From a virus (taxonomy: Duplodnaviria; Heunggongvirae; Uroviricota; Caudoviricetes): DNA of 21,318 bases. Both the position numbers and the translations under genes were made by a program. Position 1 is the stretch's first letter. Every line of letters begins with the position of its first letter. Of this stretch, positions 1,643 through 6,709 are shown in pieces. Below the pieces are notes generated by a model, which saw only the letters and a program-made list of their open reading frames with translations, was not told the DNA's origin and did not search any database. The stretch lies in the IMG/VR virus record IMGVR_UViG_2660238462_000004; one strand, written 5' to 3'.

Positions 1643-1652
1643 NNNNNNNNNN
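1643..1652. other. Assembly gap (run of 10 N)
   Basis: Literal run of n; the Q reading frame is open right up to this gap. Confidence 0.97.
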
Positions 1653-1653
1653 C

Positions 1654-1953
1654 GCCGGTTTTAAGGGATTAATTACTTCAAAAGTAAAATCTCGCCCGCA
1701 ATGTTGTGACGATGACGCGATGATCATTTGCGGGTGCATGGCCCGTCTGAAAAAGAACAACAGCGATTTGCACGATTTATTAGTAGATTATTATGTAGTC
1801 GGTATGACATTCATGTCACTGGCAGGTAAGCATTGCTGCTCTGATGGTTATATCGGGAAAAGGTTACAGAAGGCTGAGGGCATAATTGAAGGGATGTTAA
1901 TGGCATTAGATATCCGGTTAGAGATGGATATCGTTGTTAATAACTCTAATTAA
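1654..1953 (+). CDS. quuD: Late-gene antiterminator Q (QuuD/YbcQ-like), 3' portion only; 5' end lost in the gap
   Basis: Frame is open from the gap edge: [99 protein letters not shown], stop TAA 1951-1953. Matches my recollection of the C-terminal ~100 aa of E. coli prophage QuuD. Position upstream of the lysis cassette fits. Confidence 0.65.
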
Positions 1954-1980
1954 TACGCCAATTATTTACTAAAAGTTATT

Positions 1981-2010
1981 AAAAATGGGGCGTTGAGACG
2001 CCCCCAAAAA
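1981..2010 (-). terminator. GC stem-loop with flanking T/A runs; likely intrinsic terminator for the porin transcript
   Basis: ggggcg(1987-1992)-ttgaga-cgcccc(1999-2004); on the minus strand the stem is followed by attttt; on the plus strand by A-rich sequence. Confidence 0.45.
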
Positions 2011-2141
2011 TAAAGGGTAATATATAACAGAAGGTTTATATAGTTAGAAGCAAGGTTGTGCTCCTAAAGGAAGTGGCTTGAGGGAGCCACTTATATGTTG
2101 GGGAGGCAAAGCCTCCCGCAACATATCTTTTAGTAATCAAA

Positions 2142-3224
2142 TTAGAACTGGTAAACCATACCTACAGCAACGATATCATCGGTAGCAACGCCAGATGCTT
2201 TCGTGAAATCGCTCTTATCAATCAGGTTGATTTTGTAATCAACAAAAGTGGACATATTTTTGTTGAAGTAATAGGTTGCACCTACATCAATATATTCAAC
2301 CAAGTCCTGATCACCCCACGCACCCAAGTCTTTTCCTTTAGATTGCAGGTAAGCAACGGACGGACGCAGACCGAAGTCGAACTGATATTGTGCAACTACT
2401 TCGAAGTTTTGTGCTTTGTTGGCAATATGGTTATTACCAAAAACAGTCATGTTCTGGGTTTCAGAATAGGTGGTAGCCAGATAGATGTTGTTCGCATCAT
2501 ATTTCAGACCAGCTGCCCATACTTCAGCATTTTGACCAGATGCATTCAGGCTGTTGTTACCGTAGATAACCTGATTATTAGTGCGGTCAGATTTAGCATA
2601 GGTTGCACCTACACCGAATCCTTCATACTCATAAGTAGTGGAGAAACCGAAACCATCACCATTAGCTTCAGTTACGTCAGTGCGGTCATTTTTACCCTGA
2701 TACTGAGCAGCAAAGTTCAGACCATCAACCAGACCAAAGAAGTCATTGTTACGATAAGTTGCAACACCTGTGGTGCGACCAGTCATGAATACATCTGTTT
2801 GGGTCCAGGTATCGCCACCGAATTCTGGCAGAACGTCGGTCCATGCACCAATATCGTATGCTACACCGTAGTTACGGCCATAATCGATGGAGCCGTAGTC
2901 ACCGAATTTCAGGCCAGCGAAGGCAAGACGGGTTTTATCTTTGGAGGAACCTTGAGATTCAGCGCGGTTGCCTTTGAATTCATATTCCCACTGACCGAAA
3001 CCAGTCAGTTGATCGTTGATTTGGGTTTCACCTTTGAAGCCAAGACGGGCATAAGTAGTATCACCATCATCTGCATCATTAGAGGAGAAGTAGTGCTTAG
3101 CATTAACTTTCCCGTACAGATCCAGCTTGTTACTGTCTTTATTATAAATTTCAGCTGCCTGAGCAGACATCGCCATCAGTACTGATGCAGCTACAGCAGA
3201 AATTGCCACTGTTAATTTTTTCAT
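2142..3224 (-). CDS. nmpC: Outer-membrane general porin, OmpC/OmpF family (NmpC/OmpD-like prophage porin)
   Basis: 360 aa from ATG at 3222-3224: signal peptide [23 protein letters not shown], then [23 protein letters not shown]..., C-terminal ...VAVGMVYQF (terminal Phe typical of beta-barrel OMPs). The six-frame ORF extends 20 codons further upstream but the signal peptide fixes the start. Confidence 0.9.
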
Positions 3225-3592
3225 CGTGAGCCCTTTTTTTGAACTATTATTAAAAAATGATGTCACTGCGCGATAAATATTCATCTAATCAATGTGATTA
3301 TTTCAAGATGTAAGTTTTGGTTTCTCATTTGATTTGTGAAGTAGATCTCTATTTTTATCTGAACTTTTTCTATCGAATCCTATTCATGGCTCTTGGCTGA
3401 ATAAAAATAAATCTATTAGCCAATTTATATTAATGGCTGTTATTTATAAGTGCTCTATAATTTGAAGATTCAATTTAAACCAGCTAAAAATAACGCTGGA
3501 AATTATTTGTTGGTTATTTGTTGAGATTTGCTTATGTATTTGTAGTGGTGTTTTCAATACTCGGTAGCATTCTCGCAAATATCATTTAGTGG

Positions 3593-3620
3593 TTTACGTA
3601 CGTAAAAAATTGGTTATGCT
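3593..3620 (+). promoter_or_regulatory. Candidate late promoter (pR'-like) upstream of the lysis genes
   Basis: -35-like tttacg (3593-3598), 16-nt spacer, -10-like tatgct (3615-3620), inside a 590-bp AT-rich leader. Loosely resembles the lambda pR' arrangement (shared aaaattgg spacer motif). Inference only. Confidence 0.25.
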
Positions 3621-3653
3621 GTTAAGAGTGGTTACTTCGTCACACAGCTTAAA

Positions 3654-3682
3654 CCCGCCGTCGAGCGGATTTTTCCATTTTT
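3654..3682 (+). terminator. Candidate tR'-like terminator or pause hairpin
   Basis: Short GC stem ccgc/gcgg (3655-3668) with 6-nt loop followed by atttttccatttttt. Stem is only 4 bp, so weak. Confidence 0.3.
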
Positions 3683-3811
3683 TGAGTCTCGATATTAGCT
3701 GATAACCCAATACCTGAGTTATTCACTGACTCCGAGTCTGTTACGTTTCTGCTTTTTTGCGATACGTTGTATTCCCTCAATTTACACCCGCTTTGTCTGC
3801 GAGGTGGGGTT

Positions 3812-4027
3812 ATGAAATCCATGGATAAGTTAACAACGGGTGTCGCCTATGGCACCTCAGCAGGTAGTGCCGGGTACTGGTTTTTACAGTTGCTCGATAA
3901 AGTCACGCCCTCACAGTGGGCGGCAATAGGTGTGCTGGGTAGTCTGGTGTTTGGCCTGCTGACGTATCTGACAAATCTTTATTTCAAGATTAAAGAAGAC
4001 AAGCGTAAGGCTGCACGGGGAGAGTAA
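3812..4027 (+). CDS. essD: Class II holin (phage 21 S21-type pinholin) with dual-start motif
   Basis: 71 aa [71 protein letters not shown]; two predicted TM segments; Met1 and Met4 give the antiholin/holin dual start; SD gaggtgggg at 3801-3809. The track ORF begins at an upstream TTG (3767) that I discount. Confidence 0.85.
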
Positions 4028-4031
4028 TTCA

Positions 4032-4553
4032 ATGACTCAAAACTATGAACTGATTGTGAAAGGGATCCGCAATTTTGAGAATAAAGTTACGGTAACTTTA
4101 GCGTTACGGGACAAAAACCGCTTTGACGGTGAAATTTTTGACCTGGACATCTCGCTGGACCGTGTTGAAGGTGCCGCGCTGGAGTTTTATGAGGCAGCAG
4201 CCAGAAGGAGCATCAGACAGGTCTTCCTGGATGTTGCTGCCGGGTTATGTGAAGGGGATGAGCAGTCGCCGGAAAAGCGCCCCATAATTTTAGAGGCGCA
4301 GAATGTGTGGATAACCTACAAAGGAAAGCTACCGGGAAGAATTACTGGTTCTCTGAAGACGCCACCGACGGCATTGCGGTCAGAAAAAGATGATATTGAA
4401 TCGCCCATTGAAAAACTGGAGGGCAGCGTCGCTGATCTGAATAAAAAATTGTCGGTGCTGATTCCTTCTGAAGATGAAAAAAAACGCCGCGATGAGCAGT
4501 TTGCGGCGTTTTACGATTATTGCATTGAAGTTACTCTCGCAGGAATTTTGTGA
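4032..4553 (+). CDS. Hypothetical protein, N-terminal part YdfR/DUF1327-like, with a C-terminal extension
   Basis: ATG 4 nt after the holin stop; MTQNYELIVKGIRNFENKVTVTLALRDKNRFDGEIFDLDISLDRVEGAALEFYEAAARRSIRQVFL... resembles my recollection of prophage YdfR (about 100 aa), which sits between holin and endolysin in Qin. Here the frame runs to 173 aa with a Lys/Glu-rich tail. Confidence 0.5.
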   Translation: MTQNYELIVKGIRNFENKVTVTLALRDKNRFDGEIFDLDISLDRVEGAALEFYEAAARRSIRQVFLDVAAGLCEGDEQSPEKRPIILEAQNVWITYKGKLPGRITGSLKTPPTALRSEKDDIESPIEKLEGSVADLNKKLSVLIPSEDEKKRRDEQFAAFYDYCIEVTLAGIL

Positions 4554-4793
4554 AGATTTTTGAGGAGGGTAAATCTCTTCAGTAAGCTTAATGGCGGACG
4601 CTGCAATTAATTCAGGAAGGTCCGCAAGGTCATCTGTCAGTGGATATGATGAAAAATCGGCGGCAGTTCTGTTAAGAAGCGCTTTAACTAATTCCTTTTC
4701 CTTCTCCGGCAACAAGTTGATTAGAGCTACGACTGCTTGCCTGAGTGCGATTAAATCAGCAAAAGTTTGTTTAGGTAGATTTGTGTAATCCAT
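4380..4793 (-). CDS. Hypothetical small protein; N-terminal 75 aa look coding, the distal part overlaps antisense to 4032-4553 and may be a shadow or remnant
   Basis: ATG at 4791-4793 with SD gagg 6 nt upstream (minus strand). MDYTNLPKQTFADLIALRQAVVALINLLPEKEKELVKALLNRTAADFSSYPLTDDLADLPELIAASAIKLTEEIYPPQKS... is helical and acidic. No stop until 4380; the last ~58 codons are Phe/Ile-rich, as expected for antisense of a Lys/Glu-rich coding region. Confidence 0.3.
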   Translation of the reverse strand: MDYTNLPKQTFADLIALRQAVVALINLLPEKEKELVKALLNRTAADFSSYPLTDDLADLPELIAASAIKLTEEIYPPQKSSQNSCESNFNAIIVKRRKLLIAAFFFIFRRNQHRQFFIQISDAALQFFNGRFNIIFF

Positions 4794-4906: not shown

Positions 4907-5934
<1,028 letters not shown>

Positions 5935-6117
5935 ATTAATATTAAATCGGATTATTTTTAGCGCTGAATGTGAAATTTAAATAAAAAGGACTCTTCCATG
6001 AGTCAAAATCCTTGAAATCTTAAGGGTAAGATAAAAGGTCATTAGACAGAATGACACGTTTTATTAATAAATAAAGCTATTGTTTCATTCGTGTGTTTTT
6101 CTTTACAAAAGTAATCC

Positions 6118-6146
6118 TTGCTATGGTTGGTTAATCATGCGTTAAT
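6118..6146 (+). promoter_or_regulatory. Candidate cspA-like promoter driving a long 5' UTR
   Basis: ttgcta (6118-6123), 17-nt spacer, gttaat (6141-6146), in an AT-rich upstream region; predicted leader ~145 nt to the csp ATG, comparable to the cspA leader. Confidence 0.35.
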
Positions 6147-6297
6147 GGTGTTCTGGTTTGTTACAAAATTATCTGAAGCAGTCATTGTTATAATTTTATT
6201 ATTTGTACCTCTTGAGATTTCCTTGTTGGTTTTTCTCTCTGATATTTTTTTTCGGACCATTCTGCCCAAGGGCTAACTTCTTCAAAAGGTAATAATG

Positions 6298-6510
6298 ATG
6301 TCTAACAAAATGACTGGTTTAGTGAAATGGTTTAACCCTGAAAAAGGTTTTGGTTTCATCACGCCGAAAGATGGTAGCAAAGATGTGTTTGTCCATTTCT
6401 CAGCTATTCAGAGCAACGATTTCAAAACGTTAACTGAGAATCAGGAAGTCGAATTTGGTATTGAGAACGGACCTAAAGGCCCCGCGGCTGTTCATGTTGT
6501 GGCACTTTGA
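6298..6510 (+). CDS. cspI: Cold-shock protein, CspA family (CspI-like)
   Basis: 70 aa [70 protein letters not shown] with RNP1/RNP2-like motifs (KGFGFI, VFVHF); SD aagg 8 nt upstream. Confidence 0.9.
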
Positions 6511-6709
6511 GGTAGAAAATATTACAAACCATATTCACTTTAGATGCCCGTGTTGCCATGGTTCTCAGTATAGAACATCATCTTTTGATGTTTCTGACAG
6601 GAATCCTTTCGGGGCAAAATGTATCTTTTGTAAATCAATGATGATTACATTTGATAATATTTCACAATACTTAAATGTTAGCCGTCTATCGTTAGATTTA
6701 AGAAAGTGA
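6494..6709 (+). CDS. Small zinc-ribbon protein (YnfQ/YmcF-like) downstream of csp; start codon uncertain
   Basis: Frame encodes ...[57 protein letters not shown] with CxCC...CxxC. The first ATG (6494) lacks an SD and overlaps csp; a GAGG (6509-6512) lies 8 nt upstream of an in-frame ATT (6521), which would give a 62-aa product. Confidence 0.5.

Follow-up and report, generated by a model that had tools for sequence, protein, structure and literature searches.

A porin gene that runs against the late genes of a lambdoid prophage, between the antiterminator gene Q and the holin gene S, raises the question of whether it is a working part of the prophage and how late transcription reaches the lysis genes beyond it. 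We analyzed this arrangement in a stretch of 21,318 nucleotides from an IMG/VR virus record (IMGVR_UViG_2660238462_000004), referred to here as the window. Its features are collected in Table 1. Q (quuD) and S (essD) lie on the plus strand within 190 and 590 bp of the porin gene, respectively, the porin gene lies on the minus strand, and all long open reading frames downstream of it are again on the plus strand, in agreement with the initial annotation, which had described a porin antisense to the late genes between Q and S. Q itself, named there as a flank, is present but reaches into the window only in part, as a 10-N scaffold gap at 1643–1652 removes its first ~27 codons. The full-length QuuD of strain A14 matches Pfam Phage_antitermQ with 179 bits, while QuuD shares 78% identity with the Q protein of a 933W-type Stx phage and is distantly related to Q21 of known structure (PDB, E 7.6e-7).

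The Q-porin-S block shows 99.4% identity to annotated quuD, 'porin OmpC' and essD in many complete genomes. At a coverage of at least 80% it is found in 2397 of 5426 complete E. coli genomes (~44%) and, with the same porin flanks, in 36 phage records, among them plaque-forming temperate phages, PA-2 lc and a 434 hybrid. Taken as a whole, the locus is best explained as the quuD-nmpC(lc)-essD segment of a DLP12/PA-2-type lambdoid prophage, an assignment that we regard as very probable. The NmpC/Lc porin gene of lambda-like E. coli prophages, reversed between Q and the lysis genes, has long been known, and the copy described here is intact and ordinary. The module as such was known before: NmpC/Lc counts among the classic lysogenic-conversion porins, and the literature covers its promoter, its 3′ UTR RNA, its H-NS binding and its thermoregulation. 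This link to textbook DLP12/PA-2 biology was missing from the initial annotation, as was the structured ipeX 3′ UTR. Rfam searches at gathering thresholds gave no match in 1653–3811, the sole match in the window being a cspA thermoregulator at 6140–6556, and no tRNA genes were found, in contrast to the Q-stx interval of Stx phages.

Table 1. Features of the quuD-porin-essD locus (window coordinates)
Feature	Position	Strand	Basis or remark
Antiterminator gene quuD (Q, 933W/DLP12 type), 3′ part, ~100 codons	1653–1953	+	99.4% DNA identity with annotated quuD in strain A14
Porin cassette (moron), inferred extent	~1933–3590	-	933W-type homology gap
Porin 3′ UTR, equivalent of the DLP12/PA-2 ipeX RNA region, 164 nt	1978–2141	-	Five predicted hairpins, of which the final one forms the terminator
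Intrinsic terminator of the porin transcript, GGGGCGTCTCAACGCCCC then ATTTTTAATA	1987–2004	-	Terminator scan
NmpC/Lc-type general porin, intact, 360 aa	2142–3224	-	Signal peptide encoded at 3156–3224
Porin promoter region (PnmpC, -199 to -1)	3225–3423	-	98% identity with mapped K-12 region
AT-rich island, 366 bp	3225–3590		29.0% G+C; mean of the window, 49.4%
PnmpC, candidate start site	near G3269–3271	-	E. albertii-conserved blocks
PnmpC, candidate -10 GAATAT	3277–3282	-	E. albertii-conserved blocks
PnmpC, candidate -35 TTGAAA	3301–3306	-	E. albertii-conserved blocks
PnmpC, candidate CRP site TGTGAagtagaTCTCT	3335–3350	-	E. albertii-conserved blocks
pR′ homologue: -35 TTTACG (3593–3598), 16-bp spacer, -10 TATGCT (3615–3620)	3593–3620	+	Aligned with phi345
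Dyad TTTACGTACGTAAA over the -35, candidate Q-binding element	3593–3606	+	Inferred
Conserved initial transcribed region GTTAAGAGTGGTTACTTCGTCACACAGCTT	3621–3650	+	Conservation across pR′ family
Leader hairpin and T-runs, AAACCCGC cgtcga GCGGATTT TTCCATTTTTT	3651–3683	+	phi345 homologue annotated 'Terminator'
Class II holin gene essD (S), first late/lysis gene	3812–4027	+	Pfam Phage_holin_2_1, 121 bits; annotated essD in matching genomes

The porin gene and its own control regions

The mechanical open reading frame call starts the porin at an ATG at 3284 and yields 380 aa. We rejected this start, which would place 20 extra residues before the canonical signal peptide, is unused in reference annotations and has its ATG overlapping the putative -10 element. 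The gene starts at the ATG at 3224 (MKKLTVAIS...), in line with the PA-2 lc record and RefSeq WP_000737275.1, the latter being 100% identical to the protein. Its signal peptide of 23 aa, a length also annotated in the PA-2 record, ends in AQA before AEIYNK, and the C-terminus reads ...VYQF with a terminal Phe. Pfam Porin_1 (PF00267) matches over profile positions 1–337 of 337 with 510.6 bits (cut-off 23.7) and the NCBIfam 'porin OmpC' subfamily with 518.1 (cut-off 484), while the scores stay below the NCBIfam equivalog cut-offs for PhoE (506 < 599) and OmpF (484 < 583). The complete OmpC-family porin of the initial annotation is thus borne out over its full length. Residues 24 to 360 align with solved chains of OmpK37, OmpC and OmpK36 (E 1e-130 to 1e-137), and the match to the OmpK37/OmpC structures over the whole mature length (E 2e-137) predicts a 16-strand beta-barrel trimer with outer-membrane pore activity.

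The comparison with NmpC, OmpD and OmpC that had been proposed places the protein at 91% identity to Lc of phage PA-2 and at 76–79% to OmpD-type porins. The differences from Lc are concentrated in three short stretches (residues 182–187, 216–231 and 263–267), which by OmpF numbering should correspond to the surface loops L4–L6. Together with flanks kept at 96–98% identity in PA-2 and DLP12, the kinship with Lc upholds the earlier view of the gene as a lysogenic-conversion candidate. The identical protein occurs on at least 1000 contigs under the names 'outer membrane porin protein LC', 'porin OmpD' and 'porin OmpC', the last of which, given by PGAP, masks its identity as prophage NmpC/Lc. The annotation gains an intact porin, unlike that of K-12, with its start codon at 3224 instead of 3284.

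Downstream of the stop codon, the 3′ UTR is 96–97% identical to K-12 and PA-2, and 162 nt of it are kept at 88% in E. albertii. Its predicted fold has a minimum free energy of -61 kcal/mol (z = -9.4 against shuffled sequences). For PA-2 and ipeX, lysogens reportedly produce the porin at the expense of OmpC and OmpF, in work attributed to Castillo-Keller et al. (2006). Two further papers describe IpeX as an RNA of 167 nt that is part of the porin transcript and represses OmpC and OmpF (PMC12197685, PMC5069750). Both the ipeX region and the pR′ homologue described below can now be placed to the base.

The region between porin and essD had been called a 590-bp leader and strongly AT-rich. This name is a misnomer, as the 587-bp spacer (34.2% G+C; 98% identical to K-12, PA-2 and A14) consists of two back-to-back control regions. 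The strong AT bias holds for the porin-proximal island, whose G+C content is reached or undercut by only 0.5% of 366-bp windows, but not for the S-proximal 221 bp with 43% G+C. The expectation that the spacer holds the porin promoter as well as the late promoter and terminator is supported. In K-12, deletion of -199 to -1 relative to the ATG abolishes PnmpC activity, and PnmpC is described as a CRP-activated sigma-70 promoter under the control of CRP, OmpR, IHF and MprA (PMC11677980). A CRP site is also annotated in the PA-2 record. The exact hexamers and the start site in Table 1 are candidates. Since a consensus scan found no sigma-70 site at either the porin promoter or pR′, and is uninformative for promoters, both promoters rest on homology and on published work.

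One may ask whether this promoter is used at all, or whether the porin is a silent relic that hitch-hikes in the prophage with its AT-rich promoter kept off by H-NS, comparable to the IS5-disrupted nmpC of K-12. The K-12 nmpC/essD spacer is indeed classed as a low-output 'promoter island', with H-NS occupancy in every ChIP study compared (PMC3661553, Table 1, entry 576129_354 nmpC(-)/essD(+), H-NS 'A' for all studies), and the titles of cited papers term nmpC 'quiescent' in E. coli B and K-12. Against silence stand the intact reading frame found unchanged on so many contigs and the conservation of the promoter-proximal blocks and the 3′ UTR in E. albertii. We take the ChIP entry to correspond to ~3305–3660 of the window, on the assumption that the older K-12 numbering differs from that of the current record by ~777 bp. 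In K-12 itself, nmpC mRNA rises 16.5-fold at 37°C compared to 23°C, NmpC protein has been detected in strain CFT073, and K-12 PnmpC is active enough to drive the IS5 transposase gene (PMC11677980). Hence, we consider a silent relic unlikely; of the earlier suggestion of an H-NS-silenced region, the binding stands for the K-12 equivalent, whereas 'silenced' is too strong.

Position of the late promoter

The window aligns at 3593–3683 with pR′ and the first leader hairpin of 933W-type phages, and in hundreds of Stx phages a match to 3592–3674 follows immediately behind Q; the core block of pR′ is conserved in 8 phages. The phi345 counterpart, TTTACG-16-TATCAT, is annotated 'Promoter', and its position fits the pR′ start site that dRNA-seq located 258 nt before tR′ in the Stx phages of strain Sakai (PMC7547250). 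The start site in the window would accordingly fall near 3627–3628, as judged from the alignment. The initial transcribed region is near-invariant in DLP12, PA-2, 933W-type phages, SfII, mEp460, 1720a-02 and phi467, shares positions with the second 'CRP site' that was annotated in PA-2 in 1986 (about 3627–3647) and is probably the pause and Q-loading region.

The hairpin that follows is the sole terminator-like element between pR′ and S. The terminator scan missed it because its stem has fewer than 5 pairs, and an A at 3669 weakens it to -6.2 kcal/mol in RNAfold compared to -12.0 kcal/mol for the G variant of K-12 and A14. The 258-nt RNA of the Sakai Stx phages implies that RNA polymerase reads past the homologous first hairpin there (PMC7547250). 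For the DLP12 lysis operon, control by Q is reported in a source that itself relays it through a citation.

Lambda and 933W-type phages have pR′ immediately next to Q, and a layout of this kind would put the late promoter just after Q at 1954–2141, from where Q-modified polymerase would cross the porin 1.1 kb antisense to reach S and, upon prophage induction, shut the porin off by transcriptional collision. A weak TTGAGA-19-TAATAT can be made out by eye at 1993–2023, and the hairpin at 1987–2004 lacks a T-run on the plus strand, which would permit rightward read-through. The consensus scan, however, found no promoter-like plus-strand site in 1954–2141, this segment matches only porin-carrying phages and is part of the porin 3′ UTR, and the homologue of the promoter cognate to a 78%-identical Q sits at 3593–3683. 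We therefore hold a late promoter directly behind Q to be very unlikely. During induction, transcription from the early operon should read through rightward in any case, which is compatible with pR′ on the S side of the cassette. Because pR′ lies on that side, late transcripts need not cross the porin, and the layout explains how a reversed gene can occupy the interval from Q to S and stay clear of them.

Extent of the cassette and a model of its expression

Homology to 933W-type Q ends near 1932 (codon ~121) and resumes at ~3589 with GTTTACG, so that the cassette stands in for ~60 nt between Q codon ~121 and pR′ of these phages. Where the flanks adjoin, in a 933W-type phage and in 1720a-02, the cassette is absent and Q abuts the pR′ core. 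Its composition is unlike that of its neighbours (43.6% G+C in the reading frame and 29.0% upstream, compared to 49.4% in the window), and it brings its own terminator and probably its own promoter, one having been mapped by others in the 98%-identical K-12 region, with the conserved blocks TTGAAA and GAATAT present in the window. In a comparison that took in 80 porin loci of other genera, shared flanking DNA was limited to E. coli and E. albertii. An origin by capture from a known chromosomal ompD locus finds no support, as the porin flanks have no DNA similarity there. That the gene is a core chromosomal OmpC/OmpD porin merely adjoining prophage genes, as the PGAP name and the 76–79% identity to OmpD-type porins of Citrobacter, Enterobacter and Salmonella might suggest, is extremely improbable in view of Q and S close by on either side, the same flanks in 36 phage genomes and the dissimilarity of these flanks to chromosomal ompD-type loci.

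We thus return to the quuD-nmpC(lc)-essD reading and propose that a self-contained cassette lies reversed between Q and the pR′ that belongs to this Q. In the lysogen, the porin would be transcribed from its own CRP-activated sigma-70 promoter, located within the H-NS-bound AT-rich island in the ~200 bp before the ATG and stronger at 37°C, and its transcript would halt at its own terminator (2004–1987), short of Q. One product would be an OmpC-like trimeric general porin exported via its signal peptide, the other the structured ipeX 3′ UTR of ~165 nt, which would lower the synthesis of host OmpC and OmpF. Jointly, both would swap host porins, which are phage receptors, for a porin that is encoded by the phage and differs in its surface loops from allele to allele, and such receptor replacement may be the selective benefit. 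On the other side, pR′ would fire rightward and halt at the leader hairpin, until Q modifies RNA polymerase at the leader and lets it read through into S, R and Rz. Within this model, the intactness of the gene, its homologies, the borders of the cassette, the terminator, the RNA fold and the base composition follow from the window itself. PnmpC with its regulators, H-NS binding, ipeX activity and the Q-dependence of DLP12 would apply to the window by analogy, as the respective papers deal with sequence that is 96–98% identical. The reading given in the initial annotation is largely supported; each of its elements withstands the tests made here or agrees with papers on near-identical sequence. 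Phage-borne porins matter since they alter antibiotic permeability, sensitivity to phages and colicins, and heat resistance.

Three further suggestions are, taken jointly, tentative and rather doubtful. The Q/pR′ junction of 933W/DLP12-type phages may be a recurrent site for reverse cargo (the porin here, unannotated genes in SfII and mEp460), and cargo at this site may stay outside the late transcript. The dyad over the -35, which has phage-specific variants, may co-vary with Q alleles as a Q-binding element. Lastly, the lysis cassette of this prophage may be leaky owing to G3669A, a rare change in the leader hairpin.

Comparison with known phages and porin loci

Among the closest known counterparts is lc of PA-2 (GenBank J02580; Lc porin, 'protein 2'), which occupies the same place in the same orientation from the Q side to the lysis genes. 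The match in its upstream spacer (98% identity) extends to the CRP sites that the PA-2 record lists. Lc has 365 aa compared to 360 aa here, with substitutions and two small deletions in the three variable stretches, and the lysis region after the holin is unlike that of the window. DLP12 (qsr′) of E. coli K-12 shares the quuD-nmpC-essD order as well as a near-identical spacer and 3′ UTR. In K-12, however, IS5 interrupts nmpC after codon 346 and the S-proximal spacer carries a 16-bp deletion, whereas the copy in the window is intact. Further downstream, the window has the Qin-type genes rrrQ, rzpQ and cspI where DLP12 has rrrD, rzpD and bor.

With 933W-type Stx phages, the window shares the late promoter, the initial transcribed region and the first hairpin at 76–77% over ~83 nt. 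The pR′ of Stx phages reaches into the end of Q, and its leader of 258 nt to tR′ gives rise to the StxS sRNA and is followed by tRNA genes and stx, whereas Q and pR′ are 1.66 kb apart here and S follows ~130 nt after the hairpin. The alignments made here gave no homology to the Stx-phage leader past the first hairpin, suggesting that the distal StxS part and tR′ are absent. The chromosomal OmpD/OmpC-type porins of Enterobacteriaceae, finally, belong to the same fold family and include Salmonella arizonae among those at 76–79% identity, but their genes are not prophage-borne and have no flanking DNA in common with the porin of the window.

A reverse-strand porin gene between Q and S

The window is contiguous only from position 1653 on; positions 1–1652 comprise seven short pieces linked by runs of 10 N, and the gap at 1643–1652 has removed the first ~27 codons of the antiterminator gene quuD (Q). 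Some of these pieces encode, on the minus strand, lambda-like tail proteins that we judged by eye to be K and L.

The initial annotation had placed a complete OmpC-family porin gene on the reverse strand between Q and the class II holin gene essD (S), and this feature is confirmed with small corrections. The protein matches Pfam Porin_1 from end to end (510.6 bits), scores 518 in the NCBIfam 'porin OmpC' subfamily (cut-off 484) and carries a C-terminal Phe, and the solved chains of OmpK37, OmpC and OmpF align to its residues 24–360 (E down to 2e-137). A mechanical ORF list carries the gene up to an ATG at 3284; a start at 3224, which is also the one found in the record of the lc gene of phage PA-2 and in RefSeq, yields a 23-residue signal sequence followed by AEIYNK. 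The porin is 91% identical to Lc of PA-2, and the differences, including two small deletions, are grouped in residues 182–187, 216–231 and 263–267, which by OmpF numbering are probably the surface loops L4–L6, while the remainder is nearly invariant. Such clustering would fit diversifying pressure acting on the exposed loops.

Features of the porin locus and neighboring regions in the window
Feature	Position	Strand	Remarks
N runs	58–67, 727–736, 852–861, 977–986, 1108–1117, 1399–1408, 1643–1652		resemble draft-assembly scaffold joints
Antiterminator gene (quuD), last ~100 codons	ends 1953	plus	
Spacer between antiterminator and porin genes			188 bp
Intrinsic terminator closing the porin 3′ UTR	2004–1987	minus	terminator scan
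Porin gene	2142–3224	minus	
Spacer between porin and holin genes	3225–3811		587 bp
pR′ homologue TTTACG-16-TATGCT	3593–3620	plus	homology to phi345
Homologous leader hairpin, then T-runs	3651–3672	plus	homology to phi345
Class II holin gene (essD)	3812–4027	plus	
DUF1327/YdfR-family ORF	4032–4553	plus	
137-aa ORF, no family	4380–4793	minus	overlaps DUF1327/YdfR ORF
Rfam cspA thermoregulator	6140–6556		109.8 bits; 3′ of second AT-rich island
cspI-like gene	6295–6510		inside cspA thermoregulator match

Porin promoter region and 3′ UTR

The spacer between porin and holin genes had been described as strongly AT-rich and as typical of H-NS-silenced DNA. Its overall G+C content is 34%, but AT-richness is limited to 3225–3590 (29% G+C, within the lowest 0.5% of same-size windows), whereas the S-proximal 221 bp contain 43% G+C. 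On the upstream side of the porin ATG, the spacer shares 98% identity with E. coli K-12, PA-2 and strain A14. In K-12, the promoter of nmpC, the lc counterpart in the cryptic prophage DLP12, has been described as an ordinary sigma-70 promoter whose start, a G, has been mapped; deletion of -199 to -1 abolishes its activity, CRP activates it through two sites, and OmpR, IHF and MprA repress it (PMC11677980). Warming from 23 to 37°C raises nmpC mRNA 16.5-fold in K-12 (PMC8544407), and strain CFT073 shows this thermoregulation in both mRNA and protein (PMC12890032). A CRP site annotated in the PA-2 record falls on 3335–3350 of the window, and an E. albertii relative retains only the proximal 131 nt, with a CRP half-site, TTGAAA and GATTAGATGAATAT as conserved blocks. 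We infer a putative porin promoter with its -35 element at 3301–3306, its -10 element at 3277–3282 and a start near 3269–3271, so that the ATG at 3284 would fall upstream of the transcript; a consensus scan gave no promoter match in this region.

The K-12 nmpC/essD spacer is among 78 'promoter islands', and every ChIP study in the comparison marks it as bound by H-NS (PMC3661553, Table 1). Hence, H-NS binding is published for DNA 98% identical to that of the window, but 'silenced' goes too far for an active promoter, and the published activity of PnmpC indicates a porin gene under regulation and not one that is just kept off. A second AT-rich island, as low in G+C (~28%) as the porin spacer, is located in 5886–6556, and the K-12 cspI/ydfP spacer is likewise an H-NS-bound promoter island (PMC3661553).

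The 164-nt stretch 3′ of the porin stop codon, which had been overlooked, is the ipeX region (1978–2141, minus strand). It shares 97% identity with K-12 and PA-2 and folds into five hairpins (-61 kcal/mol, z = -9.4 versus shuffles). According to two reviews, ipeX is a DLP12 RNA of 167 nt that is produced within the porin transcript and represses OmpC and OmpF (PMC12197685, PMC5069750).

The late promoter pR′ and its leader hairpin

When the spacer alone was compared with phages, positions 3592–3674 proved 76–77% identical to the sequence directly 3′ of Q in several hundred Shiga-toxin phages, and the record of phi345, a 933W-type phage, labels the matching sequence 'Promoter' and 'Terminator'. 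Scanning phi345 returned TTTACG-16-TATCAT followed by a hairpin with a T-run, and a second terminator ~258 nt past the expected start. This agrees with the Stx phages of strain Sakai, in which the start of the Q-dependent late promoter pR′ was located by dRNA-seq and a Term-seq 3′ end lies 258 nt downstream (PMC7547250). Homology to K-12 PnmpC and to phi345 thus supports the proposal of a porin promoter as well as a late promoter and terminator in this spacer. A lambda-like layout, in which the late promoter adjoins Q and the porin gene is read through in antisense, is not supported, since the scan detected nothing resembling a plus-strand promoter in 1954–2141 and this segment matches porin-carrying phages only.

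The pR′ core of the window recurs in DLP12, PA-2, 933W-type phages, SfII, mEp460, 1720a-02 and phi467, its conserved parts being the -10 element, TAAGAGTGGTTACTTCGCCACACAGC and the hairpin; in 1720a-02 it lies directly 3′ of a 126-aa Q. The dyad over the -35 element varies among phages (TTTACGTACGTAAA in the window; TTTACGATCGTAAA, GCGTACGC and GCGGTCCGC), a pattern as expected of a Q-specific binding element, for which it is a candidate. Full-length QuuD of A14 is 78% identical to phi345 Q, with identity ending at codon ~121. According to experiments cited in PMC7918800, the DLP12 SRRz operon is controlled by the Q-type antiterminator, RpoE and Hha.

In the 3′ arm of the leader hairpin, position 3669 is A in the window and G in K-12, A14, 933W-type phages, SfII and 1720a-02, which weakens the predicted hairpin (-6.2 versus -12.0 kcal/mol); mEp460 and phi467 carry T, so the pair is not strictly conserved. 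The exact 65 nt of 3636–3700 recur at 100% in only 4 of the 2639 matching E. coli records, and A3669 could be a real rare variant or a draft-assembly error. RNA polymerase reads past the equivalent first hairpin in Sakai phages to give the 258-nt RNA (PMC7547250), so that the hairpin of the window can be called no more than a putative terminator.

A porin cassette at the Q/pR′ junction and its known relatives

In DNA alignments, Q homology to the 933W type stops near 1932 and resumes at ~3589, which indicates a ~1.66-kb cassette in place of the ~60 nt joining Q to pR′ in those phages. The cassette contains a C-terminus that is new to Q, ipeX and its terminator, and the porin gene together with the AT-rich promoter region. 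In a lysogen it probably acts as an autonomous unit, in which a CRP- and temperature-responsive promoter within an H-NS-bound island would drive a porin and ipeX transcript that ends short of Q. Lc of PA-2 is known to take the place of OmpC and OmpF, and by analogy the allele of the window, with its variable loops, would be expected to replace both, changing permeability and removing receptors for competing phages. Meanwhile, pR′ would fire constitutively toward S, with polymerase stopped at the leader hairpin for as long as Q is lacking.

Outside Escherichia, the nearest porins are the products of chromosomal genes of the OmpD type in Citrobacter, Enterobacter and Salmonella arizonae (76–79% identity). 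In the sampled loci, their flanks showed no DNA similarity to the cassette promoter region or 3′ UTR, so that within this sample the regulatory parts are particular to the phage lineage. E. albertii NBRC 107761 encodes a porin of 89% identity (positions 231–2503 of the locus compared) in which the proximal promoter and the 3′ UTR are also conserved; its neighbors are a bor-like lipoprotein gene and ordinary genes of the chromosome, and it appears to be a stranded remnant of the same cassette. SfII (positions 121–1143 of its locus) and mEp460 (positions 1–836) carry a different minus-strand gene directly upstream of the pR′ core, neither with a Pfam match, which suggests that cargo in reverse orientation has repeatedly settled at the Q/pR′ junction. 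The 434B record also has a reverse-strand lpxR gene, beside a Q fragment.

From the holin on, the window follows a Qin-type lysis region (rrrQ, rzpQ, cspI, ynfN), an arrangement common to 282 genomes, and the prophage is therefore a DLP12/Qin mosaic. Two ORFs fill ~880 bp between holin and endolysin, where DLP12 has no gap.

The 2.4-kb Q-porin-S block is 99.4% identical to annotated quuD / 'porin OmpC' / essD in many complete genomes and is covered to at least 80% in 2397 of 5426 complete E. coli genomes. It occurs in the same arrangement in 36 phage records, among them newly isolated temperate phages, a 434 hybrid that bears the copy of K-12, and the PA-2 lc record of 1986. The exact porin is present on at least 1000 contigs, named variously 'outer membrane porin protein LC', 'porin OmpD' or 'porin OmpC'. 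K-12 DLP12 carries the equivalent segment quuD-nmpC-essD, its nmpC being split by IS5. The initial interpretation as a whole is largely correct, and the system is an already well described one, namely DLP12 nmpC or PA-2 lc with ipeX, beside a 933W-type pR′.
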